A stretch of 64,000 bases of DNA. Source: a virus. Within the stretch, counting starts at the first letter, position 1. Each line of letters opens with the position of its first letter. The position numbers were made by a program, and so were the translations under genes. The DNA is taken from positions 32,001 through 96,000 of the IMG/VR virus record IMGVR_UViG_3300025030_001854, one strand, 5' to 3'. This document shows, in pieces, positions 1,561 to 38,942 of this stretch. The notes below the pieces were generated by a model. The model worked only from the letters and a program-made list of their open reading frames with translations, ran no database searches and had not been told where the DNA came from.

Positions 1561-2166
1561 TTAATCAATCCGAATAAGTCTTGAACCTCCACCTGGACTA
1601 ACCTCAACAGCCTTTTTAATGTCTTCTTCTGAAAGACCCCTTAAAGATTGGGCAATTTTCATAACTGTTCCATTACAAGGAAAATATCCCTTTTTGGTAT
1701 ATTTAAAAGCCCTCCTTAAAGAATCAACAACATTTCCCTCAAGTTTATTAACTCCAAGATGATTCCTTAAAGTAGAAATAATAGCTTCAGTAGTGGAATA
1801 AATTTGAGTTCCATTCCAAGCAAACTGACAAACAGTAAAATCAAAAGAATTAAATAAATCTTCTATCGAAGAATAATACTTAACCCTAATGCATTGAACC
1901 AACAAATCATCAAGAATAAAAGAGACAGCATTCTTATGTTCACTGATTTTTTTAAATCCCCTCTGTAAAAGTAATTGACAATAATTGTTAAACGCCTTCT
2001 CTGTTTCAAAAAAAACATCTACATCACTTAATTTCTCATTACCTTTAAACCAACCACGAATCGCCCCGCCAGCTATCCAACCAAATAACGATGAAGAGGG
2101 AATAGGAACAATATCGGGAATTTTTGGTCCTAACATCTGAAGTTCGTCAAGAGTAATAATAGTCAT
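1561..2166 (-). CDS. tRNA nucleotidyltransferase / poly(A) polymerase head-domain-like protein
   Basis: Class II NTase motifs IAGGAIR..DVDVFF and FDFTVCQFA; short (201 aa); FNSFD replaces the usual RRD. Confidence 0.7.
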   Translation of the reverse strand: MTIITLDELQMLGPKIPDIVPIPSSSLFGWIAGGAIRGWFKGNEKLSDVDVFFETEKAFNNYCQLLLQRGFKKISEHKNAVSFILDDLLVQCIRVKYYSSIEDLFNSFDFTVCQFAWNGTQIYSTTEAIISTLRNHLGVNKLEGNVVDSLRRAFKYTKKGYFPCNGTVMKIAQSLRGLSEEDIKKAVEVSPGGGSRLIRID

Positions 2167-2180
2167 AAATAATAAAAAAA

Positions 2181-2444
2181 TTTAAGAAAAAATAGCCGAG
2201 ATTCTGTGTTCCTTGCGGTCATCTTACATTTATCTCACTTTACAGTGGGGATTTACTAATAATCCCTGCTCCAACCTCGCCAGACTTTGGCGTATAACTC
2301 ACATACGGCTCTGGCTATTTAGGATTGCTTTGGATTTGTGGTATTAACGAGAATAAATTCTCTCCCAATCATCGAGTTAAAAAGTCTCGAACTTGTCCTC
2401 TATAATAGGGTTAGCCTATTACAGCGTAAGATTTTTTTCTTAAA
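2181..2444 (-). ncRNA. rnpB: RNase P RNA, minimal: catalytic domain intact, specificity domain almost absent
   Basis: P1 UUUAAGAAAAAA/UUUUUUCUUAAA; P2 UCUUAC/GUAAGA; P3 hairpin; GAGGACAAGUUCGAGAC pairs with ACAGAAUCUCGGCUA (P4 with bulged U); P5 CUUU/AAAG-CAA; P6 AACUC/GAGUU; P15-P17; P18 CACU-GUAA-AGUG; AGAUAAAUG; P19 CC-GCAA-GG. Confidence 0.88.
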
Positions 2445-2633
2445 TTAAAATAGTTCTCCATATTTTATCAATTTTCCATTTACTTCTTTAAGCATATAAC
2501 AATCAGCATATCCTAATTCATTTAACATTAAACGACTAGCAATATCTTCAGCTATATCTTTTTTAGAAGGACGGGACAACTGTTCTAAATATTCATCAGA
2601 TACTTCTACATCTATAAGCATTTTAATATTCAT
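2445..2633 (-). CDS. hypothetical protein
   Basis: 62-aa ORF ending immediately before the RNase P RNA. Confidence 0.5.
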   Translation of the reverse strand: MNIKMLIDVEVSDEYLEQLSRPSKKDIAEDIASRLMLNELGYADCYMLKEVNGKLIKYGELF

Positions 2634-2641
2634 AAAAATTA

Positions 2642-2830
2642 GAGTAGCTTTTGTTTTTTGCGGCGTTAGCCATGGTAGTGCTACTTATCCATCTACCGTA
2701 GTTTGGTCAATGTAGAGAAACCTTCGATGGCGTAGAATTTCCTCTGGTTTCTTTAGTTTGTTCTATTAGACACTTCTCAGCATCCGTCAATGACTCAAAG
2801 TGTTAATATATTCCGTTTTAACAACTACTC
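2642..2830 (-). ncRNA. candidate structured RNA of unknown family
   Basis: Intergenic; ends pair (GAGUAGUU/AGCUACUC); internal helices CACUU/AAGUG, AGAAACC/GGUUUCU, GGUAG/CUACC. Confidence 0.45.
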
Positions 2831-2855
2831 CGTGGCCTACGGATGACCAAATTGT

Positions 2856-3229: not shown

Positions 3230-3258
3230 ATCTTAACGCAAGTTTGCCCCGCTGTCAA
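3230..3258 (-). promoter_or_regulatory. sigma70-type promoter upstream of the ORF-ncRNA-rnpB-NTase unit
   Basis: TTGACA-N17-TAAGAT. Confidence 0.65.
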
Positions 3259-3757
3259 GCACCCCTTTTGTTCCGAAATCTGGATGTTGACAAATTAAAA
3301 CTTTAATATTTAACGATTGTCCAAAAACAGATTCGAGAATAGCCATAACAATATGCCAATCTCCACCACCCCTATTACATCCAATACCATAAGGGATAGC
3401 TAAAATTTTAACTTCTCCGCTATCTTTCTTTAAAATATTATTCCTAAGAGAAGTTAGTCCTTCAACCAAAGCGTTGTAATCAGTTTGTCTTTTCCCGCCC
3501 CCTAATTCAAATTGCCCATATAAATTAATAATATTAGACACCCCAGGAAATGAAAAATTATAAACTGCTGCATGGGAAAAGGTTCCAAGTTTAGATGGGT
3601 CGCCGTAAGAAGTTTTTTTATCAGCTTCGTAAGCTTCTGGAAACAGCTCTCGTATATCTTTAGCTATTCCCGCGCCCATAACATGAAAACAATTAGCTTG
3701 ATGAATATGGGCATCTGCTTCTTGCTGAAAGAAGTCTATTACTTTTAATTCAATCAT
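3233..3757 (-). CDS. macro domain protein (ADP-ribose / Appr-1-p processing)
   Basis: HQANCFHVMGAGIAK, NLYGQ and PYGIGCNRGGGDW motifs. Confidence 0.85.
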   Translation of the reverse strand: MIELKVIDFFQQEADAHIHQANCFHVMGAGIAKDIRELFPEAYEADKKTSYGDPSKLGTFSHAAVYNFSFPGVSNIINLYGQFELGGGKRQTDYNALVEGLTSLRNNILKKDSGEVKILAIPYGIGCNRGGGDWHIVMAILESVFGQSLNIKVLICQHPDFGTKGVLDSGANLR

Positions 3758-4464
3758 ATAATAATTTTAAATTTGTCTAAAATAAGTTGCCTTAAACCAT
3801 TAGAAAAAAACCTAATAAGAGTTTTAGTATCTACGCTAGGTGCAGAATTTAACTCTAGAAAATAGTAGTCTTTTCCTACTTTCAAAATATCTGCGGCTCC
3901 AGCATCTAACCCGATAGTTTTAGCCGCGTCAAGTGTTTGTTGGGAAATTTTTGAGTCAAATTTAAATCTATAACTGTATCCCCAATTACTTCTACAAGGA
4001 AAAGATTTATGGTCTTCTGGTGTTAATGGAACTCGTTGAGCCACAAATGTTTGCTCTCCGCAAAACCAAACTCGATATTCTTCATCTGTTTCCAAGAACT
4101 GAGTCGCATAGTATCCACCTAAAACTTCAAATGGACCATTAATAATACTAAATTCATTTCCCGCTGTATGTGTATATGGGCGAATTACAGCTTTTATTCC
4201 CTTTGGGACCATTTTATAATAAATGGTAGGAGTTTTTACTATATGAGATAATCTTTTAAGAGCCTCTAATTTATCGCAATTTAAAGAAATATTTGATGCT
4301 GGATTAATTACCATGTCGAATTCTCCCCCGCGAGTTAAATAAGAATTTCCCCATCGAACCACAACAACATCCCTTTGGACATTTTTTGCAGACCTAGTAA
4401 CAGGAAAGCCAATTTGTTTAGCGGACTCGAATTCGCTTTTAATTGTAAGGATATTAATCTTCAT
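3754..4464 (-). CDS. ATP-grasp ligase (phiEco32-like)
   Basis: VVRWG, EYRV, GLDAGAADI, FLELNSAP; start adjusted to MKINIL. Confidence 0.75.
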   Translation of the reverse strand: MKINILTIKSEFESAKQIGFPVTRSAKNVQRDVVVVRWGNSYLTRGGEFDMVINPASNISLNCDKLEALKRLSHIVKTPTIYYKMVPKGIKAVIRPYTHTAGNEFSIINGPFEVLGGYYATQFLETDEEYRVWFCGEQTFVAQRVPLTPEDHKSFPCRSNWGYSYRFKFDSKISQQTLDAAKTIGLDAGAADILKVGKDYYFLELNSAPSVDTKTLIRFFSNGLRQLILDKFKIII

Positions 4465-5305
4465 ACCAGTGAGGTCGATTGATAATAGGAGTACTCGTTC
4501 CAATAGGACTTGAAGAATATTGAGACATCACAGAATTCTGTCCAGCCGTATTAGGGATATAAGGTTTATATGGAGTATATGGCAATGCAGAATAAACTTT
4601 ATTTTGTTTACCACCCAATCTATACCATTTCCCACCTTCTGCAAACGGACTTGGCTTGATTTTTTGCTTAACAAACTTGCCATGTCTATTATAGCGATAC
4701 CAACCCTCTTCTACCTCGGAACTCTTTTTATATTCTCCAAAAGGGAATACTGATGCGAAAGCAAAACTTTTATCGCTACGAGGCCAAATTTCCAAATCGC
4801 CACTTGTTTTAACAATATCTAGGGTGCCATTTTTATGTAGAGCCATAAAAACTCCAGCATGGTCTAATACTTGAGAAAACTTCTTTGGCCCGATAGTCTT
4901 TAAAAGATGACCGGCAACTTCACTATCTGTTTCCCCCTCCATTTTTCCGACAAACTTTTGTAAAAGAACCTTAGACACACCATAATCAGACCATATACCA
5001 TTATGGACAACAGCCATATCTCCGATAATAAACGGATGAGTATTTCTATCAGCATTACAGCCATGGGAAGCCGCCCGAAGATGAGCAAGCGTCCATCCAT
5101 TGTAAGGCATGTGAGACAGAAAAGGATATTGTTCCTTTTCAAGTAGCTGGGTTAGCGAAAATGGGAATTTTTCAACTTTAAATTCTCCATCTGGTTGAAT
5201 AAAAACAGAGCCAACTCCGTCTTTATTCATATTTTCGAAATCTAACAGTATTTTAATTGCCCGTTCACGGGAGAACAGCGGCGGAAAAGCGGCGAGGCGA
5301 CACAT
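4454..5305 (-). CDS. class II (Ntn) glutamine amidotransferase
   Basis: N-terminal MCRL, HLRAAS, NTHPF, HNG, GETDSE. Confidence 0.85.
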   Translation of the reverse strand: MCRLAAFPPLFSRERAIKILLDFENMNKDGVGSVFIQPDGEFKVEKFPFSLTQLLEKEQYPFLSHMPYNGWTLAHLRAASHGCNADRNTHPFIIGDMAVVHNGIWSDYGVSKVLLQKFVGKMEGETDSEVAGHLLKTIGPKKFSQVLDHAGVFMALHKNGTLDIVKTSGDLEIWPRSDKSFAFASVFPFGEYKKSSEVEEGWYRYNRHGKFVKQKIKPSPFAEGGKWYRLGGKQNKVYSALPYTPYKPYIPNTAGQNSVMSQYSSSPIGTSTPIINRPHWYED

Positions 5306-5308
5306 AAT

Positions 5309-5761
5309 TTATTTTTTAGTAGGTAATGGTAACGTAAAATTTTGAAAATCGACTTCTGTAGTTTTTTTGTCCAAAAATAGAATAATAGTTTCTAAAATAG
5401 CTGTCGCTAATGGAATATTTTGTCTTAGTTCGTATCCAAGACCAATATAATATTTTCCATAATAGCGGTCGTTTTTGTATATGTCAATAGAAATTCCGTA
5501 TTTTTTAAAAAAATCAACGATAATTTTAAGATATTCTGGATGGTCAAAATTATGATATGCAGCGAAACAAATCTTAACATCCCAATTAATTTCTTCCTTT
5601 TCTGGTTTTTTAATTCCAAATACTCGGTAATCAAATTGAATTGAATTATTTGATAAACGGCAGTTGTCTCGTATTTGTTGTAGATTAATATCTTTTTTAA
5701 AAGTTATCATAAAATTATGTCGGTGTTGAAATAAGAGAATCTGAATACCTTTTCCAAACAT
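5309..5761 (-). CDS. hypothetical protein
   Basis: ORF inside the amidoligase cluster; true start probably the downstream MITFKK. Confidence 0.5.
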   Translation of the reverse strand: MFGKGIQILLFQHRHNFMITFKKDINLQQIRDNCRLSNNSIQFDYRVFGIKKPEKEEINWDVKICFAAYHNFDHPEYLKIIVDFFKKYGISIDIYKNDRYYGKYYIGLGYELRQNIPLATAILETIILFLDKKTTEVDFQNFTLPLPTKK

Positions 5762-6641
5762 CTTCCAAAGAAGGAATTTTTACTTCGTCTTTATATAGAC
5801 CCCAAGACTTTTTCATGTCATCGGTATTCCAAGATAATTTTTTGGAAATCAGCAAAGGAAATAATTCAAGATACTTTTGATATAATGGATATAATTCCAT
5901 CTTTTGGATTTTAGGCCAAAGTTCAAAGAATAGTTTTGTCAATTGTGTTCTATTTACGGTATTTAAATAAACCAAAAACATACTATCTGGAGAATACTTC
6001 TGAAAAAAAGGCGATTGGCTAGCTTTAACAATTTTAAATAATTCATAACCAACAACCTTAGATAAACATAATGCTGCTGCCGCTGCATACGGAGAAGATA
6101 ACCAACTACTTGGACTTCTAAATTCTAATCCATGTAATTGAATCCTATAATCTAAACCCTGCCCATAATGGCGGCGACGAAAACGAGCATCTTTTGATTT
6201 TTCAACCAAGGTGCAAGGAATTCCCACAAAAAACGCCAAATTAAACATAAAAAAGTCTATATTTAGAGGAAAATTACCCTGCCACGCTTGATAATCATCT
6301 CCTTCTTTTTCAAAACCAAAATGAATATGTCCACCTAAAGTCTCTCGATTAATTCTTGACCCGGCTTTCCAAATATAATCTTGTAAAATCGGTCGAGTAT
6401 TAGCGAAAGAAAGAAGAATTTCTCTAATTCTATTTACTACTACTAGAGGATTTTCATCTGGTTCTGGACGTAATTCAAGAATCCTCCCACATCCATCTGT
6501 TCCCATCAACCCAACATTATGAGAATCATCTTCGCTAAAAAATCTGGCCAATGCTGTAGAATGAGTCGTTGTGTGGGGCAAACAAAGAGCAAACTCTGGG
6601 TCAGCACCTAACTTAAAATTTTTAAAATCTCTCTCACTCAT
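5715..6641 (-). CDS. phiEco32-like COOH-NH2 ligase (type 2 amidoligase)
   Basis: LGADPEF, GTDG, ELRP, GGHIHFG, EFRSPSSW; start adjusted to MSERD. Confidence 0.85.
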   Translation of the reverse strand: MSERDFKNFKLGADPEFALCLPHTTTHSTALARFFSEDDSHNVGLMGTDGCGRILELRPEPDENPLVVVNRIREILLSFANTRPILQDYIWKAGSRINRETLGGHIHFGFEKEGDDYQAWQGNFPLNIDFFMFNLAFFVGIPCTLVEKSKDARFRRRHYGQGLDYRIQLHGLEFRSPSSWLSSPYAAAAALCLSKVVGYELFKIVKASQSPFFQKYSPDSMFLVYLNTVNRTQLTKLFFELWPKIQKMELYPLYQKYLELFPLLISKKLSWNTDDMKKSWGLYKDEVKIPSLEDVWKRYSDSLISTPT

Positions 6642-6924
6642 AAAATTATGTATTAGATGGGATAATAAAATCATCAAGGGTGAGAACTGGAATAGAACTA
6701 ATTGGTTCTCCAGAGCTTATCTGTAATACTCTATTAGTTAGAGTACAATATACATCTTTTTGTGAGGCTTGAACATTTAAAGCTCGAATAATCCCGGCTG
6801 GGACTTGAATAAAAAAGGTTTTATTTTTGCGAATTAATTTTGTTTTTCGCGGAACGTCTAATGCTGTAGTTTTTGGCATACAACAAGCATAGAGGACTTT
6901 TGTTTTTGAGTCAAGAGTCAAAAA

Positions 6925-8370: not shown

Positions 8371-8462
8371 TGGCGGAAAACATCAGTCCTGCCCTGAACC
8401 CCTCTTGTTAGACGGGCCATCCCGTTTCCAGCGGGAGAAGCCACTTTGGCTTTTTATTTTCC
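8371..8462 (-). tRNA. tRNA-Ser(GGA)
   Basis: AC arm UCCCG-CUGGAAA-CGGGA, long variable arm, G73-CCA, T-loop GGCAGGA. Confidence 0.8.
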
Positions 8463-8606: not shown

Positions 8607-8691
8607 CGGCTGTTGAAGGGATTGCACCCTCGCGCCCAAAGGGACGGCTTCAGTTTTCGAGACTGACCTATTACTACTCTAGCAAACAGCC
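8607..8691 (-). tRNA. tRNA-Ser(CGA)
   Basis: Acceptor GGCUGUU/AACAGCC, loop CU-CGA-AA, long variable arm, T-loop UGCAAUC; CCA not encoded. Confidence 0.88.
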
Positions 8692-9530
8692 CTAACTGCT
8701 TTTCTTGGATTCGTGACAAGAACAGTCGCAACTCTTCTTAGAACACCAATTAAATTTCTTTTTTAGCCAAACTAAAAGTCCAGCACAAAAAATTGGAATT
8801 CCTATACAAAAAATTCCACCATCAATACAAGATATCATTATTTTTCCCCTTTAGAACATTTACCACATAAAAATTGTGAGCCATTCCACCATAATAACAA
8901 CAAAGGATAAATATCGTGACAACATTCGCATTCTTGCAAAAGGTCATAATTCCCTATATTGTCGTATCCATCCCACATATTATAGTTTATTAAATTAATT
9001 CCCTAAGATAACGTTTAATTTCAATACGAGCGGGTTTATTAGCTTTGGCATATTGCTTTTTAGAAGCTCTAATAGCAGTATGAAGCTTGTCTTCTGGAAG
9101 TTCTGAAGATTCTCGTAATGCTTTTCTAATGAGTTTTGCTGTTTTTGCGTTCATAAAAGTTTAACTATTTTTTATATATTTTTCTAATTCTTTATCGGGT
9201 AAATTTTTTCTCATTTCGACACATTGAGGATTTGAAGAAGAACATCTACCGCCAAATTTTAAGCATTCATAAAAATAAGAGCCTTTTAAATTCATTAATT
9301 CTTGTCTAGTAGATTTTGGGGCCAATTCTGGATATTTTTTAAACGATACAAATTTACCAAGCTCTAAATTTCCAACTTTTTTACATTCTACAAATTGAAT
9401 ACTATAACGTCTCATATTAAATTCCAGTAAAAGTGTCTTTTTTCTTTTTTTTAAACCACTCTTCTACTTCTAACCACAAAGCCACTACAATTAGTAGAAC
9501 TAATATAAAAAAATCTTTTATGGTTCTCAT

Positions 9531-9604
9531 TGGAGCCCTAAGATGGTATCGCGCCATCGTCTCTTGAATACCAATCAAGAATAATGCTTTTATACTATTA
9601 GGGC
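9531..9604 (-). tRNA. tRNA-Thr(GGU)
   Basis: GCCCUAA/UUAGGGC, loop UU-GGU-AU, T-loop CGCGAUA, CCA. Confidence 0.88.
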
Positions 9605-9620: not shown

Positions 9621-9692
9621 AGCCCCGTCCCAGAATTGCACTGAGATTTCTTCCTTACGAGGGAAGCACATCTCTATTTATGTTTACGGGGC
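9621..9692 (-). tRNA. tRNA-Thr(CGU)
   Basis: GCCCCGU/ACGGGGC, loop CU-CGU-AA, T-loop UGCAAUU; CCA not encoded. Confidence 0.88.
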
Positions 9693-10176: not shown

Positions 10177-10253
10177 TGGTGTTCGCGGTTGGATTTGCAC
10201 CAACCTAATCTATCTACGATTACTTTTTTAGGAAAAAAGGTCGATACGCGAAC
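10177..10253 (-). tRNA. D-arm-less (rewired) tRNA-Arg(CCU)
   Basis: GUUCGCG-UAUCGAC-CUUUU-UUCCUAA-AAAAG-18 nt-GUUGG-UGCAAAU-CCAAC-CGCGAAC-A-CCA. Confidence 0.78.
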
Positions 10254-10865: not shown

Positions 10866-10943
10866 TGGTAGGATAGGAGGGATTCGAACCCTCATTAGTC
10901 CATTATGCACACATTGTTTAGAAGACAAGGCCATTACTATCCC
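10866..10943 (-). tRNA. D-arm-less (rewired) tRNA-Arg(UCU)
   Basis: GGGAUAG-UAAUGGC-CUUGU-CUUCUAA-ACAAU-19 nt-GAGGG-UUCGAAU-CCCUC-CUAUCCU-A-CCA. Confidence 0.8.
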
Positions 10944-11543: not shown

Positions 11544-11619
11544 TGGAGTCCGCTATAGGAATCGCACCTATCAACCCTCGTTTTGCAGACGCGGTGTTTC
11601 ACTAGCCACACCAGCGGAC
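11544..11619 (-). tRNA. tRNA-Cys(GCA)
   Basis: GUCCGCU/AGCGGAC, U73, loop CU-GCA-AA, T-loop UGCGAUU, CCA. Confidence 0.88.
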
Positions 11620-12080: not shown

Positions 12081-12374
12081 TTACTCCTGTTTTGGCTGCT
12101 CGTCAAGCCATTTTGCAATCACATCACAATGACACGACACTTCTTTATCGGCACGTTTACAATAACAGCCTAATTTTTCATCTTTTAAAGTTAAAACTAA
12201 ATCATAAAACCTTTTATCTTTAAGACAAAAATTAAACCATTTAGCAAATTTATTAATAACTTCTTCTCTTGTCCCATCTCTACCGATTTCAAAAGGATTA
12301 CCAAATATAGAACCCCTTCCACAGTACTCATAAGGAGTTTCTGAATAAGCTCTTATATTAATTACTTTTGTCAT
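12081..12374 (-). CDS. DUF4326-like protein
   Basis: YCGRGSIFGNPF...LGCYC...CHCDVI. Confidence 0.8.
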   Translation of the reverse strand: MTKVINIRAYSETPYEYCGRGSIFGNPFEIGRDGTREEVINKFAKWFNFCLKDKRFYDLVLTLKDEKLGCYCKRADKEVSCHCDVIAKWLDEQPKQE

Positions 12375-12381
12375 ATATATT

Positions 12382-12464
12382 TGCAAACGGGGAGATTTGC
12401 ACTCCCACGCTTTTTAAAGCCTAAGATTCTCGGTCTTAGATGTCTGCTCTTTCATCACGTTTGC
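12382..12464 (-). tRNA. tRNA-Leu(GAG)
   Basis: GCAAACG/CGUUUGC, loop CC-GAG-AA (C33), variable arm, T-loop UGCAAAU; CCA not encoded. Confidence 0.85.
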
Positions 12465-12923
12465 TCTATTTCTTACTCCATAATTAGAGGTTTGAGCATG
12501 ACAATTACAGCATAAAAGTTGAATATTGAATAATCTATTATCCTTATTATCTCCATTGATATGATGTAATTCCAAAGGAATATATAATGTATTCCATTTA
12601 ACCCGACCACATTTTTCGCATTGATGTTTTTTTAAACCCTCTTGAATCAATCTTTTTTTTAAACAATGACTACTAATTTTTATGCAATCTTTTACAAGAA
12701 AATATTCAATGGGTTTTCTGGTTGGAGCCCTTTTACCTCTCCAGATAGCTTGACCCAAAAAATGAGGTGCTTTTATTAAAAACTCTTCGGCCCTTTCTTT
12801 TATTCTTAAATAATTATGACTGTCTGGATACAATCCCAATTTAATACATACACTTCTCCAAGATTCTGAATTTTGAATCACAATATTTAATGTTTGAAAA
12901 TCAATTTGTTTTATCTTACCCAT
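12414..12923 (-). CDS. HNH homing endonuclease
   Basis: CEKC...LELHHINGDNKDNRLFNIQLLCCNCH; 3' end overlaps tRNA-Leu(GAG). Confidence 0.88.
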   Translation of the reverse strand: MGKIKQIDFQTLNIVIQNSESWRSVCIKLGLYPDSHNYLRIKERAEEFLIKAPHFLGQAIWRGKRAPTRKPIEYFLVKDCIKISSHCLKKRLIQEGLKKHQCEKCGRVKWNTLYIPLELHHINGDNKDNRLFNIQLLCCNCHAQTSNYGVRNRANVMKEQTSKTENLRL

Positions 12924-13072: not shown

Positions 13073-13474
13073 TCAGTAACCTCGGTAACAAACCGTTAAG
13101 TGTAACGGCCATTTTAAATCAGGTTTTAATCCTAATTCAGTTCTTATATGTTGAATAAAAGGACATTCCACTAATAACCAAAAATACTCTCCTAAAAAGA
13201 AATATTCATGGTCAGTCTTAATATCAGAGAAATATTTAAATTCAATTACTTTTCCTTCATATTTACCCCATAAAGGATGTTGATTAATTCCCCTTTCGTG
13301 TTTTCCAGGAAGAATCGTAACGTGGCTTCCGTGGTAAGAGGTAGAAGTTTTCTTGCCGATAAATCTTTCTACCCAAAATCTATAGTAATTAGCAATAGAA
13401 TGAGGACATTCTAAAATTATCCAATCATTCTTATATCTAATAACGCCTTTGGCGAAATAAAATTTTTCTTTCAT
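13073..13474 (-). CDS. 2H phosphoesterase family protein
   Basis: Two HxT motifs: SHVTI and LHLTV. Confidence 0.7.
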   Translation of the reverse strand: MKEKFYFAKGVIRYKNDWIILECPHSIANYYRFWVERFIGKKTSTSYHGSHVTILPGKHERGINQHPLWGKYEGKVIEFKYFSDIKTDHEYFFLGEYFWLLVECPFIQHIRTELGLKPDLKWPLHLTVCYRGY

Positions 13475-13723: not shown

Positions 13724-13798
13724 TGGTAGTCCCGAACGGTCTTGCGCCGATACTTGCGAATTTTTGAAATTCGTGCCTCTGCTTTGGGCTACGGGACC
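13724..13798 (-). tRNA. tRNA-Leu(CAA), short variable loop
   Basis: Loop UU-CAA-AA, T-loop CGCAAGA, A73-CCA. Confidence 0.85.
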
Positions 13799-14451: not shown

Positions 14452-14528
14452 TGGTGAGATTAGAGGGCATTGCACCCTCGTTTACTGCTTGAGAAACAGT
14501 AGTCCTATTCTTCTTAGACGATAATCTC
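14452..14528 (-). tRNA. tRNA-Glu(CUC)
   Basis: GAGAUUA/UAAUCUC, loop UU-CUC-AA, T-loop UGCAAUG, CCA. Confidence 0.88.
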
Positions 14529-14908: not shown

Positions 14909-14979
14909 TGGTGGCAGGCTGGGGATTCGCACCCCACCGAATTCCTTATGAGAGAACTCTGGCCGCTAGACCGCTTGCC
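14909..14979 (-). tRNA. tRNA with CAU anticodon (Met or Ile2)
   Basis: Loop CU-CAU-AA, short D-arm, T-loop UGCGAAU, A73-CCA. Confidence 0.8.
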
Positions 14980-15098: not shown

Positions 15099-15626
15099 AT
15101 GATTAATAATATGAAAAAATGTTCTAAATGTCAGCAATTAAAAAATAAATCTTTTTTTTGTAAAAATAAACGAGCAAAAGATGGACTTTTTTCCCACTGT
15201 AGAGACTGCCGAATAATTTATTATAAATCAATAACTACTATTAAAAAAGAAAAAATTAAAATTCGTCATAATATTCGAATGAACGAACGATTTGATAATC
15301 CAATAGAAGTAAGAAAAATTCGTTTAAAAACCTTATTAATTATATCAAGATATAGAGCTAAAAAAAGAAATTTACCATTCGATTTAGATAAAGACTGGCT
15401 AGATAAAAATACCCCCGATACTTGTCCAGCTTTAGGTATTCCTCTTATTTTTAATCCTAGATATGGAAACCATTCTTTTAATTGCCCATCAATAGATAGA
15501 ATAGATAACTCAAAAGGATATACTAAAGATAATTGTGTTGTTGTATCAAAAAAAGCTAATACTATTAAAAATATGTCTACTATATCCGAATTAAAAATGG
15601 TCGCTGATTTTTATTCCAAATTTTGA
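15099..15626 (+). CDS. HNH-like homing endonuclease, antisense to the array
   Basis: N-terminal CSKC..CRDC; CPALGIPL..PSIDRIDNSKGYTKDN. Confidence 0.85.
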   Translation: MINNMKKCSKCQQLKNKSFFCKNKRAKDGLFSHCRDCRIIYYKSITTIKKEKIKIRHNIRMNERFDNPIEVRKIRLKTLLIISRYRAKKRNLPFDLDKDWLDKNTPDTCPALGIPLIFNPRYGNHSFNCPSIDRIDNSKGYTKDNCVVVSKKANTIKNMSTISELKMVADFYSKF

Positions 15627-24080: not shown

Positions 24081-24085
24081 AATCG

Positions 24086-24158
24086 GGCGAACAACGAGGT
24101 TTGCACTCGCATAATCTTGATTCACAATCAAGGACATTAACGTTATGCTATATTCGCC
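24086..24158 (-). tRNA. tRNA-His(GUG)
   Basis: Encoded G-1:C73, loop UU-GUG-AA, T-loop UGCAAAC; CCA not encoded. Confidence 0.88.
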
Positions 24159-24164
24159 ATAAAA

Positions 24165-24293: not shown

Positions 24294-24301
24294 ATAAAAT
24301 T

Positions 24302-24463
24302 AAAAAGCGGGCTTGCTCTCCAGCTTGCCCGCTGGGGGTGTAGGCTAATGGTTTAGCTTATTCCCTCCACCACTTATACAATTTCACAACATTTCGACCA
24401 CCGTCCGAAAATTCTCCCCTTCAATGAAGTCGGCTAGTAGTTGTGCTGGGTTTGCAGGTATAA
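24302..24463 (-). ncRNA. candidate structured RNA ending in an intrinsic terminator
   Basis: UUAUAC/GUAUAA and CACAAC/GUUGUG closing helices; UAAGCUAA-ACCA-UUAGCCUA; GCGGGC..GCCCGC-UUUUU. Confidence 0.45.
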
Positions 24464-24539
24464 TGGCCCTCTATGCGAGACTCGCACTCGCTACATATCT
24501 TAGACAGAGATATATGATAAACTCATTCAACAATAGAGG
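24464..24539 (-). tRNA. tRNA-Asp(GUC)
   Basis: CCUCUAU/AUAGAGG, G73, loop CU-GUC-UA, T-loop UGCGAGU, CCA. Confidence 0.85.
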
Positions 24540-24615: not shown

Positions 24616-24692
24616 TGGCGAACATAGAGGGACTCGCACCCACAATCTTTGCCTTCGCAGGGCAATGCTTTATCTAATTTAGCTATATGTTC
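24616..24692 (-). tRNA. tRNA-Arg(GCG)
   Basis: Normal cloverleaf, D-loop AAUUAGAUA (A20), loop CU-GCG-AA, T-loop UGCGAGU, CCA. Confidence 0.88.
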
Positions 24693-24887: not shown

Positions 24888-24971
24888 TGGTAGACACGGA
24901 AAGATTTGCACTTTCATTTTCAATTTCTAATTACCATTACTAATTTCGAAGATTAGCTGGATTACGTGTCC
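24888..24971 (-). tRNA. D-arm-less (rewired) tRNA-Arg(UCG)
   Basis: GGACACG-UAAUCCA-GCUAAU-CUUCGAA-AUUAGU-23 nt-GAAAG-UGCAAAU-CUUUC-CGUGUCU-A-CCA. Confidence 0.8.
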
Positions 24972-25696
24972 AATTTCTTTTTTTGTTTATTAACATGGGA
25001 AAATGGAGAAATATTTTTCCAATCTAAATTGTAATATTTGGCCCATTTTCTTATTGTATTGTCGGAACCCACTCCAATTAATTTTTTAATTTGTAAAATA
25101 TTTTTTGTTTTTAAAAGACTCTCCAATTCTTCTTTAGATGGACGGATAAATTTTCTATTACTAATCTTAGGAGAATGTCGCCAATTAGGATTTAATTGAG
25201 ATGGTTTTATTTTATATTTTTTATGTCTCTTTCCAGCAAATGAAGGTGTTTGGCTGTGACAGTTTGGGCAAAGAAAAGCTAAATTTTCCAAACGATTATC
25301 ATTAGATACTCCGTTCTTATGTTCTAATTGAAGACTTAATTTATTTCCTTGCCACTCTCCAAAATTTCCGCATTTTTCACATTTATAATCTAGTAATTGA
25401 AATTTAATAAGATTAGTTTTAATGTGTCGTCTATTTTGTATAGAATTTTCTTCTAATTTCCGTAAAAAATCATCTTTAGTATTTTTTCTTGTCAAGTTAG
25501 AAGAATTTACTCTCGATAAAAAATGTTTTGTATCTAATCCTAAAAATTCAATTCTCTTCCAACAGGTTTGATAATTAGACCCTTTATTTTCCATTCCAAA
25601 AAATCTTAAAACTTGAGACATACTAATGCTATTTTTAATAAGCTCAATAAAAGCATTATCTTCCATTTGCCAAACCACGCTTGTTCTTTTTCTCAT
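24962..25696 (-). CDS. HNH homing endonuclease with C-terminal HTH
   Basis: CEKC..LQLEHKNGVSNDNRLENLAFLCPNCHSQT; start adjusted to MRKRTS; stop lies inside tRNA-Arg(UCG). Confidence 0.88.
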   Translation of the reverse strand: MRKRTSVVWQMEDNAFIELIKNSISMSQVLRFFGMENKGSNYQTCWKRIEFLGLDTKHFLSRVNSSNLTRKNTKDDFLRKLEENSIQNRRHIKTNLIKFQLLDYKCEKCGNFGEWQGNKLSLQLEHKNGVSNDNRLENLAFLCPNCHSQTPSFAGKRHKKYKIKPSQLNPNWRHSPKISNRKFIRPSKEELESLLKTKNILQIKKLIGVGSDNTIRKWAKYYNLDWKNISPFSHVNKQKKKLDT

Positions 25697-25747
25697 ATCA
25701 TATATTACACAAAATAACGTAAGAAGTCTAATAATAGTGCAAAATAC

Positions 25748-25821
25748 TGGCTCCCCTCCCACCACTTGCAGATGGACTTACGCTTTCAAAGAGCGGTTTG
25801 CTACTCTTACAACAGAGGGGA
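25748..25821 (-). tRNA. tRNA-Gln(UUG)
   Basis: U1-A72, G73, loop CU-UUG-AA, T-loop UGCAAGU, CCA. Confidence 0.86.
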
Positions 25822-25903: not shown

Positions 25904-25979
25904 TGGTGGACACAGATGGGAATCGCACCCACTAAATCTTCATTGCGAATGAAGTGCATCGCTATTTTGCTTCTGGCCC
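25904..25979 (-). tRNA. tRNA-Ala(CGC)
   Basis: G3.U70, loop UU-CGC-AA, T-loop UGCGAUU, bulged acceptor, CCA. Confidence 0.82.
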
Positions 25980-25991
25980 ATTCTGTCTTTT

Positions 25992-26262
25992 GTTTAATAG
26001 GTATTAGGATTTCCAGCGTCACCTAAGTTTTTAACAACCTTTTCGCGGGGTATGCAACCAAGCCCGATTTGAGCCTCGTCTCAGCTAAGGATTTGCACCT
26101 TTTTATTATACCCATTTACCTTTATGGATGATACGCTCACGTAACTATGTTAGTAATGATGTCTAACTTCATCCGATACCACGATTTAGACCTATGGCAA
26201 ACCTCTTTAATAATTAATTAAATCAATGCCGACATCTAAACAGCAGTTCACACCTATTAAAC
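25992..26262 (-). ncRNA. candidate ~270-nt structured RNA with an internal T-loop arm
   Basis: 11-bp terminal helix GUUUAAUAGGU/ACCUAUUAAAC; GAUGUC/GACAUC; GGAUG/CAUCC; GGGUAU/AUACCC; AAGG-UGCAAAU-CCUU. Confidence 0.55.
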
Positions 26263-26314
26263 GGATTCACCCCCAAAGGGTTTGGTTTTGCTTAATCACT
26301 AATAATACTAAGAC

Positions 26315-26394
26315 TGGTGGACCACGGCGGTAACACTCCGCTTTTTTTAACTTGCTTGCAAAGCAAGTTCAACATTTTTGTTGCCACGTAGCCC
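26315..26394 (-). tRNA. tRNA-Ala(UGC), apparent 8/4 fold
   Basis: GGGCUACG/CGUGGUCC with G3.U70, 4-bp T-stem, T-loop AGUGUUA, loop UU-UGC-AA, CCA. Confidence 0.78.
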
Positions 26395-26454
26395 AAGGAG
26401 GCGCGTATCGTTAACGCCGACGCCTGATTGAATACAGGAGGTCTTGTGAACCCA

Positions 26455-26544
26455 TGGCGGAAGCAGGGGGAGTCGCACCCACACCGGCTTTCACCGGCTT
26501 AGTTTAGCAAACTAATTCGACAAACTGATATTCGACTTACTTCC
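26455..26544 (-). tRNA. tRNA-Ser(GCU)
   Basis: Long variable arm, G73, loop UU-GCU-AA, T-loop UGCGACU, CCA. Confidence 0.88.
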
Positions 26545-35750: not shown

Positions 35751-35899
35751 ATTTTATTGTAATTTTAATTCTTTTCCGCATCTAGAGCATCTATCGTTCC
35801 ATTTTTTACCCATCCATATCTGGTTATCTTTTCCAATAAAATGATATTCAGATAATAAAATGTGTCCAACCAAAAAACAAATTAATTTATTTAACATAA

Positions 35900-36460
35900 T
35901 TATCCTAATGGGGTTAATTTTTTAGCTACGAACATAACTATTTTATAAATGAATTCCATAACAAAGACTATTCCCAACGCGGTTCCTCTTATACAAAAGG
36001 AATAAGGTCTATATAGATATTTATACCAAAAAGTTTTCGTCTGTTTAATATTTTTTATGACAGCCGAGTGCATATATTTAATAGAAGTTTGATATTCTTT
36101 ATTTGAATGTCTTTCTTCCTTTTCTACGGAGGCTTCACTAAATACACCCTTAATAATTAAAACATTAAATACAATAAAAAAATTATCTCCATTCTCGTCT
36201 TTATTAACTAAATATCCGCCAACATAAACATTTCCAGATAGCAAATCTTGGACCTCTGTCTTAATTAAACCAGTTCCAGTTTCATCTAAATAAAGCTTAT
36301 TATCTAGAAAAGAATATTTCGCTCCGGTTTCTGGAAGTCCGATAACTTGCCACTGAAAAAGTTTCCAATCAACATCATTAGCGAGCTTTCTTACTTCATC
36401 TGAAAACGGTAAGTATTTTAGTGCTTCTGGCCAATTTAAAAAGCTAAACGAGTTGTCCAT
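35900..36460 (-). CDS. hypothetical protein
   Basis: 186-aa ORF overlapping the sigma factor stop. Confidence 0.55.
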   Translation of the reverse strand: MDNSFSFLNWPEALKYLPFSDEVRKLANDVDWKLFQWQVIGLPETGAKYSFLDNKLYLDETGTGLIKTEVQDLLSGNVYVGGYLVNKDENGDNFFIVFNVLIIKGVFSEASVEKEERHSNKEYQTSIKYMHSAVIKNIKQTKTFWYKYLYRPYSFCIRGTALGIVFVMEFIYKIVMFVAKKLTPLG

Positions 36461-37055
36461 AATTTTCTAATATTAATTTCTTTGCATTATTTCTAGCAAA
36501 ATGTAATCGACTCATAACTGTTCCAATGGGAATTTTAAGTTTTTCGCTTATTTCTCGATAAGATAATTCTTCTTCTAGGGCTAGTCTAATAATAGTAGAG
36601 TGTTCCGGTTTCAGTTTATTCAAAACAATATCTATAATTCCTCGGAGTTCTCTAAGGTCTTCTTTCTTAGAAAGAATCTTTTCTGCCGTTTCTTCTAAAA
36701 TAGCATCTGCCCCCAAAGAAATATATTCATAATCATTATTATGGTCTTCCTGTGAAAAATGAAGCGTTGAAACTTCATGATGTTGGATTTTATTTCGAGA
36801 TTTTATAAAGTTTAGGGCTTCATTTCTTATAATTACAAATAACCAAGTATTAAAAGAAGAGTCCTGACGAAAATTTTTAATTTTTCTCCAAACTTTCTCG
36901 GAGGCTATTTGGATAATATCATCAGCATCGGTAGATGGAATATTGTATTGGGAAAATAAACGTTGTTTAAAAAATGGAAGATGTATTGATAATAGTTTGG
37001 TAAACGATTCTTCACATCCATTTTGAGCTTTATTAATAAGTTCTTTTTCGTCCAT
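36444..37055 (-). CDS. ECF-type RNA polymerase sigma factor
   Basis: DADDIIQ, SSFNTWLFVIIRN, LSYREISEKLKIPIGTVMSRLHFAR. Confidence 0.9.
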   Translation of the reverse strand: MDEKELINKAQNGCEESFTKLLSIHLPFFKQRLFSQYNIPSTDADDIIQIASEKVWRKIKNFRQDSSFNTWLFVIIRNEALNFIKSRNKIQHHEVSTLHFSQEDHNNDYEYISLGADAILEETAEKILSKKEDLRELRGIIDIVLNKLKPEHSTIIRLALEEELSYREISEKLKIPIGTVMSRLHFARNNAKKLILENYGQLV

Positions 37056-37612
37056 TATCTATAGTCCTTTCTCAAGAGCCTCCATCTAGTGCTATCACAC
37101 ACGATTTCTCCATTATCAATTTTTTGTAACATAATAAGAATATCCTCTGGAGAATCATAAATATACTTGTGAGGAAAAGTTCCAAATAACCAAATGGGGC
37201 AGCACTTTTTTCCTCCTTCCACAGATAAGAAAATTGGTTTCTTCATGTAATTCGCCGTAAAAATTTCTTCGGCAGAGCCCCATGAAGCGACATCGGGGGT
37301 AATATGAGCAAAAATAAAATCAGACCTATCAACCAAATTAAGGTCAAATATTCGTGTTTCTTTCATTGCTATAGAAAGCGTATCGAAATCTCCAGTTTCT
37401 CTTAGGTGGGAATTTTTTTTAATGGTTTCCTCTCCCTCTTTAATATCTTTTAAGAAAGGTTTATCGTATGGATTAAAAACAATAATCCCCATTGCTTGTA
37501 ATGCTGGGGTAACTCGCTTTCTCCATTGGGCTCCCATTGCTGGATTAGCCTCCATATTTCCAACTAGATATGTTCTAGTTCTCCATAGGAGATTCGGATT
37601 TTGTTTTATCAT
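37055..37612 (-). CDS. nucleoside 2-deoxyribosyltransferase-like protein
   Basis: YLVGNME, FNPY, DLNLVDRSD, SWGSAEE. Confidence 0.72.
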   Translation of the reverse strand: MIKQNPNLLWRTRTYLVGNMEANPAMGAQWRKRVTPALQAMGIIVFNPYDKPFLKDIKEGEETIKKNSHLRETGDFDTLSIAMKETRIFDLNLVDRSDFIFAHITPDVASWGSAEEIFTANYMKKPIFLSVEGGKKCCPIWLFGTFPHKYIYDSPEDILIMLQKIDNGEIVCDSTRWRLLRKDYR

Positions 37613-38559
37613 TCATTAATGATACTAATGATTTGTAGAAACGTCAAGAGGTTTATCGTCCTGAATAAAAACATAATCTTTCCAAGCAGAATTATTTTGA
37701 TTTAAACAGGTAATAATTCGAGAAATAGTATCACAAGATTCTATTCCAAAAAAACTATCCTCAGTCAAATTTTCTCTCCAAATGAGCTTATTATAATAAT
37801 AAATAGATAATAAATCATTCTCTATTACAAGAAGAATCTTATCTATTTTAATTTCTGAACTGGAAATTTCTGCTTTTACAGCAATATTAAGAACTTTTGA
37901 AATATAATGAAGTTCTCTGACCAAACCTGTTGTTATCATACTAATAATTCTTTAAGAGCATTAAGAGATGTTAATATTTGACTTTCTCCAACAGTTTTTG
38001 TATCCTTGTGCAATTTGTGATATAATTGACACATTTCCCTATCTCTAGCCCTTTCCATAATAATAATCTGGTCTATTAGCTCTAAAGCTATTTTTAATTT
38101 AAGTTCAGGGGATAAATTTTCCATATTATTTAACAACAAATTTTGTGAGGGATTCTTTTTCGAGGCGTTTTTTATATTCTAAAGCATCTTTACGCCCTTG
38201 AGACGTTCGGGGGAATGCTCCGTATATGAAACGTTTTTTTTGAGATAATACTAGGTAACAAGTCTTTTTTTTCATGATGAATAAGTTCTCTATATTTTTT
38301 TAAATAAACGTCCATCTCTAAATCTTCCCTATGGAGTTTTTTTAATAAAACAGACAATTGACTACGCAAAAAATCCGCGTCATCGTCTCTATATTCTTCA
38401 TCGGCTTGTGTTATTTCTAATATTTTTTTATTAATTTCCTTTTCTAAGAAATTAACGCTTTTTATTATTATTAGTGCTTCTATTAGAAGTTTTTCTTTAA
38501 GAGAAACTATATCTTCCATAGATTATTAGACTAATAAACATAAAAAATATTTCAATTGA

Positions 38560-38942
38560 TGGACTCGGATGGAGTTGAACCATCGTCTTTAAAAAAATTC
38601 TCATTTGATGCTACAAGTTTATTTAATTATTAGTTCTTACTAAATACATAATTAACAAGAATCTTTAGTAATATTTAAATGATTTTTCCGTTCACATTTA
38701 AAACTGAACGTTTTTCCTCGCTGTTTCGACATATAAGATAGCGAGAATCTCTTAGATATCGGTATGACCATTAGTTAGGCCATAACAGTTTCGCGTTCAA
38801 GCGTGATAACACGCATAGAGGCGAGCTTTTTCACTAATTTGCTTTTGGCAGTTAATGTTTTGTCCGTTTATTTAAGTGGCCAACGAACGTCCACTACTTG
38901 CATCTAGTAACAATTTTATTAAATCGAAACCAGTACGAGCCC
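38560..38942 (-). ncRNA. ssrA: tmRNA; tag (A)AKSKLVKKLASMRVITLERETVMA* at 38775..38849
   Basis: GGGCUCG-UA-CUGGUUUCGA 5' end, G3.U70, T-arm GAUGG-UUCAACU-CCAUC, UUAACU-GCC resume context; CCA not encoded. Confidence 0.92.

Follow-up and report, generated by a model that had tools for sequence, protein, structure and literature searches.

Recoded tRNA elbows and a short RNase P-like RNA in the tRNA island of a large phage

Large and jumbo phages of the XacN1 type (56 tRNA genes in XacN1) carry arrays of dozens of tRNA genes that are encoded on one strand and cover all 20 amino acids, with a transfer-messenger RNA (tmRNA) nearby and HNH endonuclease genes interspersed, in the parts of the source that bear on these arrays (PMC5852040). 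The RNase P RNA of such an island can be set beside a second described system: the type T RNA of Pyrobaculum and its relatives (RF02357) has naturally lost most of its specificity domain and yet is the cell's enzyme, according to the relevant portions of two reports (PMC13462272, PMC3579882). Here we analyse an island at 1561-38942 of "the window", a stretch of 64,000 nucleotides that corresponds to bases 32001-96000 of IMGVR_UViG_3300025030_001854, a linear IMG/VR virus record of 136,838 bp with a GC content of ~33% and an estimated completeness of ~71%. The island resembles the described phage arrays in all the respects listed above (its HNH genes being putative) and differs from them in three: 38 of its 40 tRNAs have G at position 55, their D-loops carry A-G in place of G18-G19, and standard detectors reach only 12 of them. 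It also encodes a short RNase P-like RNA and a small nucleotidyltransferase (NTase). We consider it reasonably probable that the island is the translation support of a large groundwater phage, and that its recoded tRNA elbows and short RNase P RNA are two separately recurring phage inventions, not one co-adapted machine. All features treated here lie within positions 1-42,600 of the window, on the minus strand unless a plus is given.

The array comprises 40 cloverleaf tRNA genes on the minus strand of 1561-38942, which together cover all 20 amino acids. An initial annotation of this DNA had counted 41 tRNAs; its coverage of the amino acids stands, and its count compares with the 40 cloverleafs and one acceptor/T-arm minihelix of our own list. 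With default settings, ARAGORN reports 12 tRNAs and the tmRNA in the window, and Rfam reports 12 tRNAs at the gathering score (17, plus two tRNA-Sec-like matches, at E ≤ 10). A cloverleaf scanner of our own, which applies no T-loop sequence rule, gave 30 minus-strand hits versus none on the plus strand at a score of at least 15. Scanning for a T-arm followed by CCA (5-bp stem, 7-nt loop, 7 nt, N, CCA) and then folding added three Arg tRNAs without a D-arm, a compact CAU tRNA, and Thr(UGU), Lys(CUU), Leu(UAA), Trp, Ala(CGC), Met and Ser(GGA). One of the 30 scanner hits, at 8835-8903 (T-loop UAAAGGG), was discarded as a tRNA. The 40 genes and the minihelix are listed here.

8371-8462, minus strand: tRNA-Ser(GGA), long variable arm, T-loop GGCAGGA, CCA encoded; by-eye register
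8608-8691, minus strand: tRNA-Ser(CGA), T-loop UGCAAUC
9535-9604, minus strand: tRNA-Thr(GGU), T-loop CGCGAUA
9622-9692, minus strand: tRNA-Thr(CGU), T-loop UGCAAUU
10181-10253, minus strand: tRNA-Arg(CCU), no D-arm (7-nt linker), extra variable-region hairpin, T-loop UGCAAAU
10870-10943, minus strand: tRNA-Arg(UCU), no D-arm, canonical T-loop UUCGAAU, GG within linker UAAUGGC
11548-11619, minus strand: tRNA-Cys(GCA), T-loop UGCGAUU
12383-12464, minus strand: tRNA-Leu(GAG), long variable arm, T-loop UGCAAAU, CCA not encoded
13728-13798, minus strand: tRNA with anticodon CAA (Leu), short variable loop, T-loop CGCAAGA
14456-14528, minus strand: tRNA-Glu(CUC), T-loop UGCAAUG
14913-14979, minus strand: compact tRNA with anticodon CAU, T-loop UGCGAAU
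18168-18238, minus strand: tRNA-Lys(CUU), T-loop UGCGAUU
18996-19065, minus strand: tRNA-Lys(UUU) copy 1, T-loop CGAGAUA (A56), D-loop UAAAUUG (U19)
19820-19889, minus strand: tRNA-Lys(UUU) copy 2, T-loop CGAGAUA
19942-20008, minus strand: tRNA-Thr(UGU), T-loop AGCGUUA
20160-20232, minus strand: tRNA-Gly(UCC), T-loop GGCAGAA
20253-20323, minus strand: tRNA-Gln(CUG), T-loop AGCGUUA
21203-21272, minus strand: tRNA-Ile(GAU), T-loop AGCGUAA
21336-21423, minus strand: tRNA with anticodon UAU, long variable arm, T-loop UGAGAUU (A56), D-loop UAAAUUG
21441-21512, minus strand: tRNA-Phe(GAA), T-loop GGCAGUA
22171-22240, minus strand: tRNA-Pro(UGG), T-loop UGGGAUU (G56), D-loop UGAACAA (C19)
22248-22317, minus strand: tRNA-Val(UAC), T-loop AGAGUUA (A56), D-loop AAAAUUA (U19)
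22454-22523, minus strand: tRNA-Val(GAC), T-loop UGCGAUU
23208-23278, minus strand: tRNA with anticodon UAG (Leu), short variable loop, T-loop UGCAAUU
23374-23452, minus strand: tRNA with anticodon UAA (Leu), enlarged D region, T-loop UGCAAGU
24087-24157, minus strand: tRNA-His(GUG), T-loop UGCAAAC
24468-24539, minus strand: tRNA-Asp(GUC), T-loop UGCGAGU
24620-24692, minus strand: tRNA-Arg(GCG), T-loop UGCGAGU
24892-24971, minus strand: tRNA-Arg(UCG), no D-arm, T-loop UGCAAAU
25752-25821, minus strand: tRNA-Gln(UUG), T-loop UGCAAGU
25904-25979, minus strand: tRNA-Ala(CGC), weak acceptor stem (5 of 7 pairs), possible G3:U70, T-loop UGCGAUU; by-eye register
26459-26544, minus strand: tRNA-Ser(GCU), T-loop UGCGACU
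26669-26754, minus strand: tRNA-Ser(UGA), T-loop UGCGAUU; by-eye register
26847-26932, minus strand: tRNA-Tyr(GUA), T-loop UGCAAUU
27073-27139, minus strand: tRNA-Trp(CCA), T-loop UGCGAGU
27219-27290, minus strand: tRNA-Met, anticodon CAU, canonical T-loop UUCGACU, GG in D-loop
27297-27367, minus strand: tRNA-Asn(GUU), T-loop UGCGAAU
27779-27851, minus strand: tRNA-Glu(UUC), T-loop UGCAACU
28507-28577, minus strand: tRNA-Ala(GGC), G3:U70, T-loop AGCAUAA
28889-28958, minus strand: tRNA-Gly(GCC), first gene of the array, T-loop AGCGUUA
24165-24218, minus strand: acceptor/T-arm minihelix ending in ACCA, canonical T-loop UUCGAUU, no anticodon arm

By automatic register, in which three genes were misplaced and read by eye, the acceptor stem has 7 of 7 pairs in 35 of the 40 tRNAs, the T-stem has 5 of 5 pairs in 32 (4 of 5 in the remainder), and CCA is encoded in 31 genes; the three misregistered genes also end in CCA, and at least six genes have no encoded CCA. 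The replaced elbow contact shows why default detectors under-count tRNAs in some phages: they recover 12 of 40 here, yet ARAGORN with default settings finds 35 in G022, a phage discussed below.

Guanine occupies position 55 in 38 of the 40 tRNAs. Automatic register gave 37 G, two U and one C; the C and two of the G calls came from register slips of one to three bases (Ser-GGA, Ala-CGC and Ser-UGA), and G55 in these three genes was read by eye. The proposal of the initial annotation that the phage changed its tRNA elbows was correct, and the recoding is near-total, at 38 of 40 in place of the 39 non-canonical T-loops it reported. A UUCGA T-loop is found only in Arg-UCU (10870-10943) and Met-CAU (27219-27290), both with GG in the D-loop or linker, and the D-loop has A-G without G-G in 20 of 22 window tRNAs (those with C56 and a score of at least 16). 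The window tRNAs depart in this way from the canonical U54-U55-C56-R57-A58 and G18-G19 of tRNA (RF00005). The neighbouring contacts co-vary: position 56 is C in 35 tRNAs, A in four and G in one, and the D-loop partner site reads A-U in the four A56 tRNAs and A-C in the G56 tRNA, as against A-G in the others. The 54:58 pairs are U:A in 27, A:U in six, C:A in four and G:G in three (with the three register slips corrected by eye), and A54 never occurs together with A58.

The link between position 55 and the D-loop extends to other phages. Among unique C56 tRNAs detected by our scanner in the window and all fetched loci, a GG-containing D-loop occurs in 135 of 138 U55 tRNAs versus 11 of 65 G55 tRNAs (Fisher p 2.8e-34), and with the window and G022 removed in 133 of 136 versus two of 10 (p 1.7e-9); these p-values overstate independence, as one phage's tRNAs are related and loci L032-L111 were chosen by their G55 pattern. 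Those loci come from a scan of IMG/VR for the G55 T-arm pattern, which returned at least 120 stretches; our scanner, run on the 80 listed loci, found a G55 cloverleaf (score of at least 16) in 10, two of which (T-loop AGGAUCA) are dubious. The rule holds gene by gene within mixed arrays of other phages, where U19:A56 and A19:U56 variants also occur, and again between two permuted tRNA mimics of the window (described below), in which G55 goes with A-G and U55 with G-G. G022 is a complete phage of 275,101 bp with terminal repeats and 65% GC, and ~32 of its 35 ARAGORN tRNAs have G55 (26 with UGCRA by automatic register plus six with a one-base slip). Canonical in G022 are Leu(UAA) and two CAU tRNAs, and a canonical CAU tRNA is kept by both this phage and the window phage. 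Near-complete elbow conversion is therefore a property of two unrelated phages (33% and 65% GC), and the elbows are recoded under selection, re-paired instead of decayed. Judged from these base combinations, an A18-G55 contact may substitute for the G18-pseudouridine-55 contact. The recurrent A18/G55 elbow of phage tRNAs looks new, and full-text literature searches found no description of it.

One alternative is that G55/A18 is nearly neutral, has no role in evasion or insulation, and was carried through the array from a single founder tRNA when genes were duplicated, switched anticodon or underwent gene conversion. The T-arm and acceptor 3' halves do form repeat families with 63-80% identity, the two Lys(UUU) copies share 89% identity across an 87-nt stretch, and single G55 tRNAs appear sporadically in otherwise canonical arrays, all of which would fit such a history. 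We nonetheless find it unlikely, as two phages of such different base composition each converted ~90% or more of the array. Both kept a canonical CAU tRNA and the window tmRNA has a canonical T-loop, which looks like class-by-class selection, and retained identity features (e.g., G3:U70 in tRNA-Ala) argue against recent single-founder descent of all the genes.

We favour a functional elbow, which most likely marks the phage tRNA pool or shields it from a factor that reads elbows. Across a near-complete tRNA set, A18/G55 would replace G18-pseudouridine-55, with the neighbouring 19:56 and 54:58 pairs kept by covariation. The G55 tRNAs would still be L-shaped and used in translation without pseudouridine 55 or G18 modification, so that proteins or RNAs that read the canonical elbow would see them differently. 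A stronger form of this idea, which we regard as rather doubtful, makes the A18/G55 elbow a self/non-self mark: an elbow-reading host defence nuclease or phage weapon would leave the phage pool untouched, and host tRNAs with the canonical elbow would be destroyed or ignored. If true, such a mark would give the phage an orthogonal tRNA supply, served here by a miniature phage-borne RNase P.

Several tRNA genes are unusual in other respects. Most are followed directly at the 3' side by U-rich trailers (CCA-UUU or CCA-UUUU), which appear on the plus strand as the repeat families AAATGGTG / AAAATGGTG. In three tRNA-Arg genes (CCU, UCU and UCG) a 7-nt linker replaces the D-arm, and the variable region holds a hairpin or a long stretch, as if the D-arm had moved; GG is present in the linker of the gene with the canonical T-loop and absent from the linkers of the two G55 genes. 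The window (21336-21423, minus) and locus L152 (2018-2107) each have a UAU-anticodon tRNA of 88-90 nt whose variable arm is long and type II-like, and G022 also has a UAU tRNA (L085). Leu-anticodon tRNAs with short (5-nt) variable loops are found in the window (13728-13798 and 23208-23278, minus) and in G022 (L154 13911-14203; 72-74 nt).

The second main feature is an RNA whose core matches that of bacterial type A RNase P RNA, represented here by RF00010 and by Escherichia coli M1 RNA (rnpB from NC_000913).

2181-2444, minus strand: short RNase P-like RNA, 264 nt, with P1, P2, P3, P4 with a bulged U, P5, a ~55-nt remnant, a P15 / AAAUAG / P16 / GGU loop, two hairpins and ACAGAA..GGCU

Common to this RNA and type A are P1-P5, the bulged U of P4 (here GAGGACAAGUUCGAGA pairs with UCUCGGCU, by eye), the GAGGA..AGU and ACAGAA..GGCU strands, the P15 / AAAUAG / P16 / GGU internal loop, and an AGAUnAAUG strand before the 3' half of P2. 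The internal loop, UCC / UAAAUAG / GCCAGA ... UCUGGC / GAGGUU / GGA, resembles by eye the E. coli series P15 / AAAUAG / P16 / GGGUA / P15. The window RNA differs from M1 in being phage-encoded and shorter (264 versus 377 nt), in having ~55 nt in place of P7-P14, and in one extra C in the CR-I strand (GAGGACAAGU). It folds better than 200 of 200 shuffles (z -3.7).

Relatives were retrieved by scans for a pair of its motifs, in IMG/VR (L018, L020, L021 and L022) and in metagenomes (L024, L025, L027 and L028), and by an RF00010 search of virus records, which found L031 in the complete 365-kb phage G021; with the window RNA and with L021/L027 taken as one, these make nine short RNAs. The metagenome scan covered gaps of 150-180, the window RNA's own spacing being 182, and a scan with shorter spacing in viral contigs gave 0 matches. 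Rejected as chance matches were L019, L023 and L026, along with a match in a Nostoc metagenome-assembled genome, the sole one in 185,579 species genomes, which has no profile match. Against RF00010 (cut-off 100 bits), L020, L022, L018 and L031 align end to end with 50.7, 50.1, 40.6 and 44.1 bits (E 1e-9 to 1e-13), and ~54 nt stand in place of model positions ~75-214. A profile built from seven relatives, with neither the window RNA nor L031 included, has its sole match in the 136,838-bp record at 2185-2431 of the window (E 9e-22); the retrieval motifs amount to ~20 of its 247 positions.

The alignment of eight sequences bears out the structure. Over P2, P4, P5, P15, P16 and one hairpin, 86.5% of cells are paired, versus 34-43% with the 3' partner slid; 26 of 32 pairs show compensatory changes, and none of 500 shuffles reaches any of the five measures. 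Covariation is strong in P2, P4, P5 and P15 and weaker in P16 (58% paired, poorly aligned) and the hairpin. The eight pairs of P4 have 95.3% of cells paired over the eight sequences, with compensatory changes at four pairs, and P15 is 100% paired with compensatory changes at all three. The GGU strand is present in all eight aligned members and, by analogy with E. coli, may bind the 3' CCA of tRNA. This is a real structured RNA family with a bacterial RNase P catalytic core. The short phage family looks new, and phage-encoded RNase P RNA was not found described in the literature searched.

Individual members show further features. The RNA of L025 (477-837, plus) has an insertion of ~120 nt in the P3 hairpin that contains a canonical T-arm, GCGGG UUCGAGU CCCGU, a tRNA-like module inside an RNase P RNA. 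The L028 RNA ends 1 nt before a tRNA-Val gene, and the L024 RNA starts right after a tRNA.

Between the two P5 strands, ~55 nt replace the specificity domain, and P7-P14 with CR-II and CR-III were not found there. These nucleotides consist of GAUGAUUGGGAG, a variable hairpin and CGUUAAUACCAC(AAA) in the window RNA, L025 and L031, and take a looser form in L027, L024 and L028; the strands sit at the place of J11/12-P12. By eye only, the order and several letters of GAUGAUUGGGAG and CUCGUUAAUACCAC recall GGGUGAAAGGGUG and CACGGUAAACUCCAC of E. coli (the CR-II and CR-III strands, which flank P12-P14); in a Smith-Waterman shuffle test of the remnant against the E. coli specificity domain, 1664 of 2000 shuffles score as high. 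The initial annotation had described an RNase P RNA that is missing its specificity domain and thus lacks the reader of the tRNA elbow. The drastic reduction stands, the clean absence does not, and the lack of an elbow reader does not follow from a remnant that keeps two conserved strands around its hairpin. Type T RNA shares the natural loss of most of this domain; it is archaeal and has archaeal protein subunits, in the portions of the reports that concern it (PMC13462272, PMC3579882), whereas the phage RNAs come from the bacterial type A core and retain a small conserved remnant. The scan of the window with all Rfam families gave no sequence match to RF02357.

Alternatively, the RNA might not work as a ribozyme and might have a decoy or regulatory role, such as soaking up host RnpA or redirecting host RNase P by structural mimicry. 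Its unrecognisability to Rfam models, the near loss of the specificity domain, the lack of a phage rnpA gene among those found on the record, and the L025 insertion, a sign that the scaffold tolerates additions, are all compatible with such a role. We think it quite unlikely, because family conservation falls on the catalytic core (the P4 bulged U, ACAGAA, AAAUAG, and GGU for CCA) and because members abut tRNA genes, as expected of a co-transcribed processing RNA. RNase P catalytic domains alone, moreover, cleave pre-tRNA in vitro. We prefer to see in it a type A-derived phage family with a miniaturised specificity domain and a kept core of P4 bulged U, AAAUAG and CCA-pairing GGU, which would work with host RnpA and add 5'-processing capacity for a burst of phage pre-tRNAs. 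No Ribonuclease_P (PF00825) domain was found in the record proteins, and the proposed partner is that of the host.

Next to this RNA lies the NTase gene.

1561-2166, minus strand: 201-aa nucleotidyltransferase, with a predicted fold that covers the class II tRNA nucleotidyltransferase head and neck, body and tail being absent

The CCA-enzyme-like gene that the initial annotation placed beside the RNase P RNA is thus borne out at the level of a structural model. The protein has no Pfam match (PolyA_pol included) and matches PHROG 1614, "nucleotidyltransferase", with E 3.9e-10; an alignment of its 12-sequence family shows invariant GG..R, DxD and FDFTVCQF (G33, G34, D48 and D50). Its AlphaFold (AF2) model (pLDDT 76.5, pTM 0.73) matched, in Foldseek, more than 25 chains of CCA-, A- and CC-adding enzymes (340-460 aa, E 5e-7 to 1e-4) and a poly(A) polymerase-like bacterial protein, the NTase being about half the matched lengths. 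With the class II enzymes (PDB 4wc2, 5hc9, 1vfg and 1miv among others) it shares the head/neck fold, GG..R and DxD, and it differs from them in size (201 versus ~340-460 aa) and in having neither body nor tail nor a Pfam PolyA_pol match. It is probably a 3'-end adding or repair enzyme, to judge from the modelled fold, and would act on tRNAs without an encoded CCA; the six or more such genes in the array mean that a 3'-adding activity would have substrates. One homologue, L011, lies within a canonical nine-tRNA array.

The initial annotation joined these parts into one self-contained system, in which elbows recoded, perhaps to escape the host, are served by an elbow-independent RNase P RNA that evolved for them, together with the NTase and under the control of an attenuator. 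All parts do lie in one 37-kb stretch on one strand, the RNase P RNA is without most of its specificity domain, and the NTase is without the body and tail domains, which hold the tRNA in full-length class II enzymes. The distribution of the parts among phages argues the other way. Near short RNase P RNAs of the same family, none of 46 tRNAs in six other contigs has G55 (two in L020, 15 in L027, nine in L022, and one each in L024 and L028 with our scanner; 18 in L031 with ARAGORN). The last of these belong to G021 (365 kb, complete), in which all 18 tRNAs are canonical, yet the short RNA has the same remnant motif, GAUGAUUGGGAG ... CGUUAAUACCAC, as the window.

The converse comparison gives the same picture. 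In all 275 kb of G022 we found no RF00010 match, no motif pair and no family-profile match at E ≤ 1, nor any NTase homologue; RF00010 negatives are weak, as the genome search with this model missed the short RNAs of G002, G003 and G004. The 31.8-kb IMG/VR record G023 has a mixed array with three G55 and seven or more U55 tRNAs, and within this 19-tRNA array lies L152 (G023:C1:10336-10686, minus), an RNase P RNA of 351 nt with 98.7 bits against RF00010; phage-borne RNase P RNA thus exists also in near full-length form. Among 17 NTase-bearing virus records the motif pair is present in none, and the single RF00010 match is the short RNA of G021, ~130 kb from its NTase gene. All of these comparisons favour an independent occurrence of short RNase P RNA and G55 arrays, and in this small sample the two are distributed as the initial annotation had said they would be if its matching were wrong. 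We consider the matched system very unlikely. The two features do not look like a matched pair, and each needs its own explanation.

Attenuator control fares no better at the head of the array, where the following elements lie.

29251-29346, minus strand: 31-codon ORF (open reading frame) with 19 different residues
29203-29230, minus strand: intrinsic-terminator-like hairpin, 10 pairs (6 G-C), then a U run
29119-29147, minus strand: promoter-like site TTGACA-17-TAGTAT, between the terminator and the first tRNA; a 10/12 consensus match only

The leader peptide and terminator reported by the initial annotation correspond to a real ORF and a terminator-like hairpin. Their reading as an attenuator, by which the tRNA pool would be switched on when translation stalls, is not supported in an analysis that covered one fold, as the promoter-like site lies after the terminator and the diversity of the peptide is not unusual: 19 distinct residues in 31 have p ~0.01 and are the extreme among 66 window ORFs of 28-34 codons, a number from which ~0.7 such cases are expected. 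The simpler reading is that one operon may end here and the next one start.

Our preferred reading remains that of a translation-support island in which recoded elbows and a short RNase P RNA recur separately. A number of considerations weigh against it. No Rfam family matches the window RNA even at E ≤ 10 in a scan of all families, and its membership of the short family is a chain through relatives retrieved by its own motifs. Catalysis in vivo by an RNA with so reduced a specificity domain is something we infer from sequence, and with the record ~71% complete an rnpA-like gene could lie off it. The negative result for G022 could miss a very divergent RNA, given that RF00010 misses the window RNA too, and the distribution sample is small (six contigs with a short RNA and tRNAs, and one complete phage with a G55 array). 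None of the listed sequencing runs that contain the window DNA is recorded as RNA. That the host tRNAs have canonical elbows, finally, is taken from general knowledge.

The DNA runs that contain the window are mostly groundwater metagenomes, and the searches made found no close relative of the phage with which gene order could be compared. A 12-kb part of the array had no Megablast match among 50,697 phage records, blastn of a six-tRNA stretch gave a single 80-nt match, and the ribonucleotide reductase is at most 44.6% identical to those of uncultured huge phages. Of three single-protein searches of IMG/VR, two, for which the COOH-NH2 ligase and the sigma factor served as queries, yielded no relative, and the third yielded relatives of only 26-37% identity.

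The island also encodes Ro60, a tmRNA and six Y-like RNAs. In YrlA-type Y RNAs, GNCGAAN0-1G lies near the 5' end, in the part of the report that deals with this motif (Chen et al. 2014, PMC4201824).

31536-32942, minus strand: Ro60 (TROVE + vWA), flanked by a promoter-like site (33032-33060) and a terminator-like hairpin (31490-31514)
38557-38942, minus strand: tmRNA, tag AKSKLVKKLASMRVITLERETVMA, canonical T-loop UUCAACU
22321-22449, minus strand: Y-like element 1, closing helix, UAGUG ... UGUUCU, permuted tRNA mimic with T-loop UGCAAAU (UGCAAUU-type), closed acceptor-like hairpin and D-loop UAAUAGUAG
23286-23368, minus strand: Y-like element 2
23975-24081, minus strand: Y-like element 3, anticodon-arm-like hairpin with loop CUCAUAA
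24697-24887, minus strand: Y-like element 4
26937-27067, minus strand: Y-like element 5, permuted tRNA mimic, canonical T-loop UUCAAGU, D-loop UAGCGGUAG
27145-27211, minus strand: Y-like element 6

Ro60 and the tmRNA were both correctly called by the initial annotation: the former matches TROVE (PF05731, E 1.3e-19) and PHROG 850 (E 5e-45 over residues 17-463), with a vWA_Ro60 match under the cut-off (21.6 versus 27.7 bits), and the latter scores 109.8 bits against RF00023 (cut-off 47), its tag frame being that given by ARAGORN. Both recur beside large-phage tRNA arrays. In G022, TROVE at 18.1 kb and the tmRNA at 8.9 kb adjoin the array at 6.5-16.7 kb, and in G004 TROVE follows directly after the short RNase P RNA.

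Each of the six Y-like elements starts no more than 6 bases downstream of a tRNA gene's 3' end. Common to them is a covarying closing helix whose 5' strand is followed by URGYG and whose 3' strand is preceded by UGUUCY, an architecture found six times on the minus strand and never on the plus (shuffles: mean 0.1, maximum 2), with a pattern that was defined after the elements had been seen. Like YrlA-type Y RNAs, as far as the report describes them (PMC4201824), they have a terminal closing helix and a Ro60 gene on the same strand. In two of the six (22321-22449 and 26937-27067), a T-arm followed by a closed acceptor-like hairpin and then a D-arm, the order of YrlA, can be drawn by eye. They differ from those RNAs in having the URGYG / UGUUCY pair in place of GNCGAAN0-1G, and in lying inside a tRNA array, the nearest 4.3 kb from Ro60. 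No Rfam YrlA (RF02553) match was found at E ≤ 10 in the window, the whole record or the 161 nt around element 5, and GNCGAAN0-1G has 20 minus-strand versus 16 plus-strand matches, none of them in the 5' parts of the six elements. Of the six Y-like RNAs named with Ro60 in the initial annotation, then, all are present in one architecture, and their likeness to YrlA does not extend to its model or motif; that they are Ro60 ligands is a reasonable guess, no more, from their sequences. Together with Ro60 and the tmRNA, they would serve as RNA quality-control accessories.

Other genes and structures lie in and around the array. Seven ORFs among the tRNA genes resemble, by eye, HNH homing endonucleases (12414-12923, 15099-15626 plus, 19113-19580 plus, 21515-22099, 23439-24002, 24962-25765 and 27980-28462). 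Inside the array, 13073-13474 (minus) has a weak 2H phosphoesterase match (PF22547, E 4e-4, under the cut-off) and could encode an RNA end-healing enzyme, and 12081-12386 (minus) encodes a DUF4326 protein (E 1e-18). Strongly folding intergenic stretches without an Rfam match occur in or near the array at 25980-26454, 28578-28884, 27368-27774, 18239-18514, 24158-24463 and 2634-2855 (minus), with, for example, -135 kcal/mol for 475 nt; that at 25980-26454 contains a G55-type hairpin, AAGG UGCAAAU CCUU. Between the RNase P RNA and the tRNA array, a gene block at 3233-6677 (minus) encodes a macro domain, an ATP-grasp protein, a class II glutamine amidotransferase and a phiEco32-like COOH-NH2 ligase.

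Two textbook near-invariants, the tRNA elbow contact and the specificity domain of bacterial-type RNase P RNA, are broken here in a natural, selected way. The G18-pseudouridine-55 contact has given way to A18/G55 in scattered tRNAs of several phages and, in at least two large phages that are unrelated, in ~90% or more of the set; this elbow is a natural experiment on the factors that read elbows: RNase P, TruB, TrmH, the ribosome and nucleases. The miniaturised RNase P RNAs that phages carry beside their tRNA arrays, small and of natural origin, offer a way into the question of which parts of RNase P are required in vivo.

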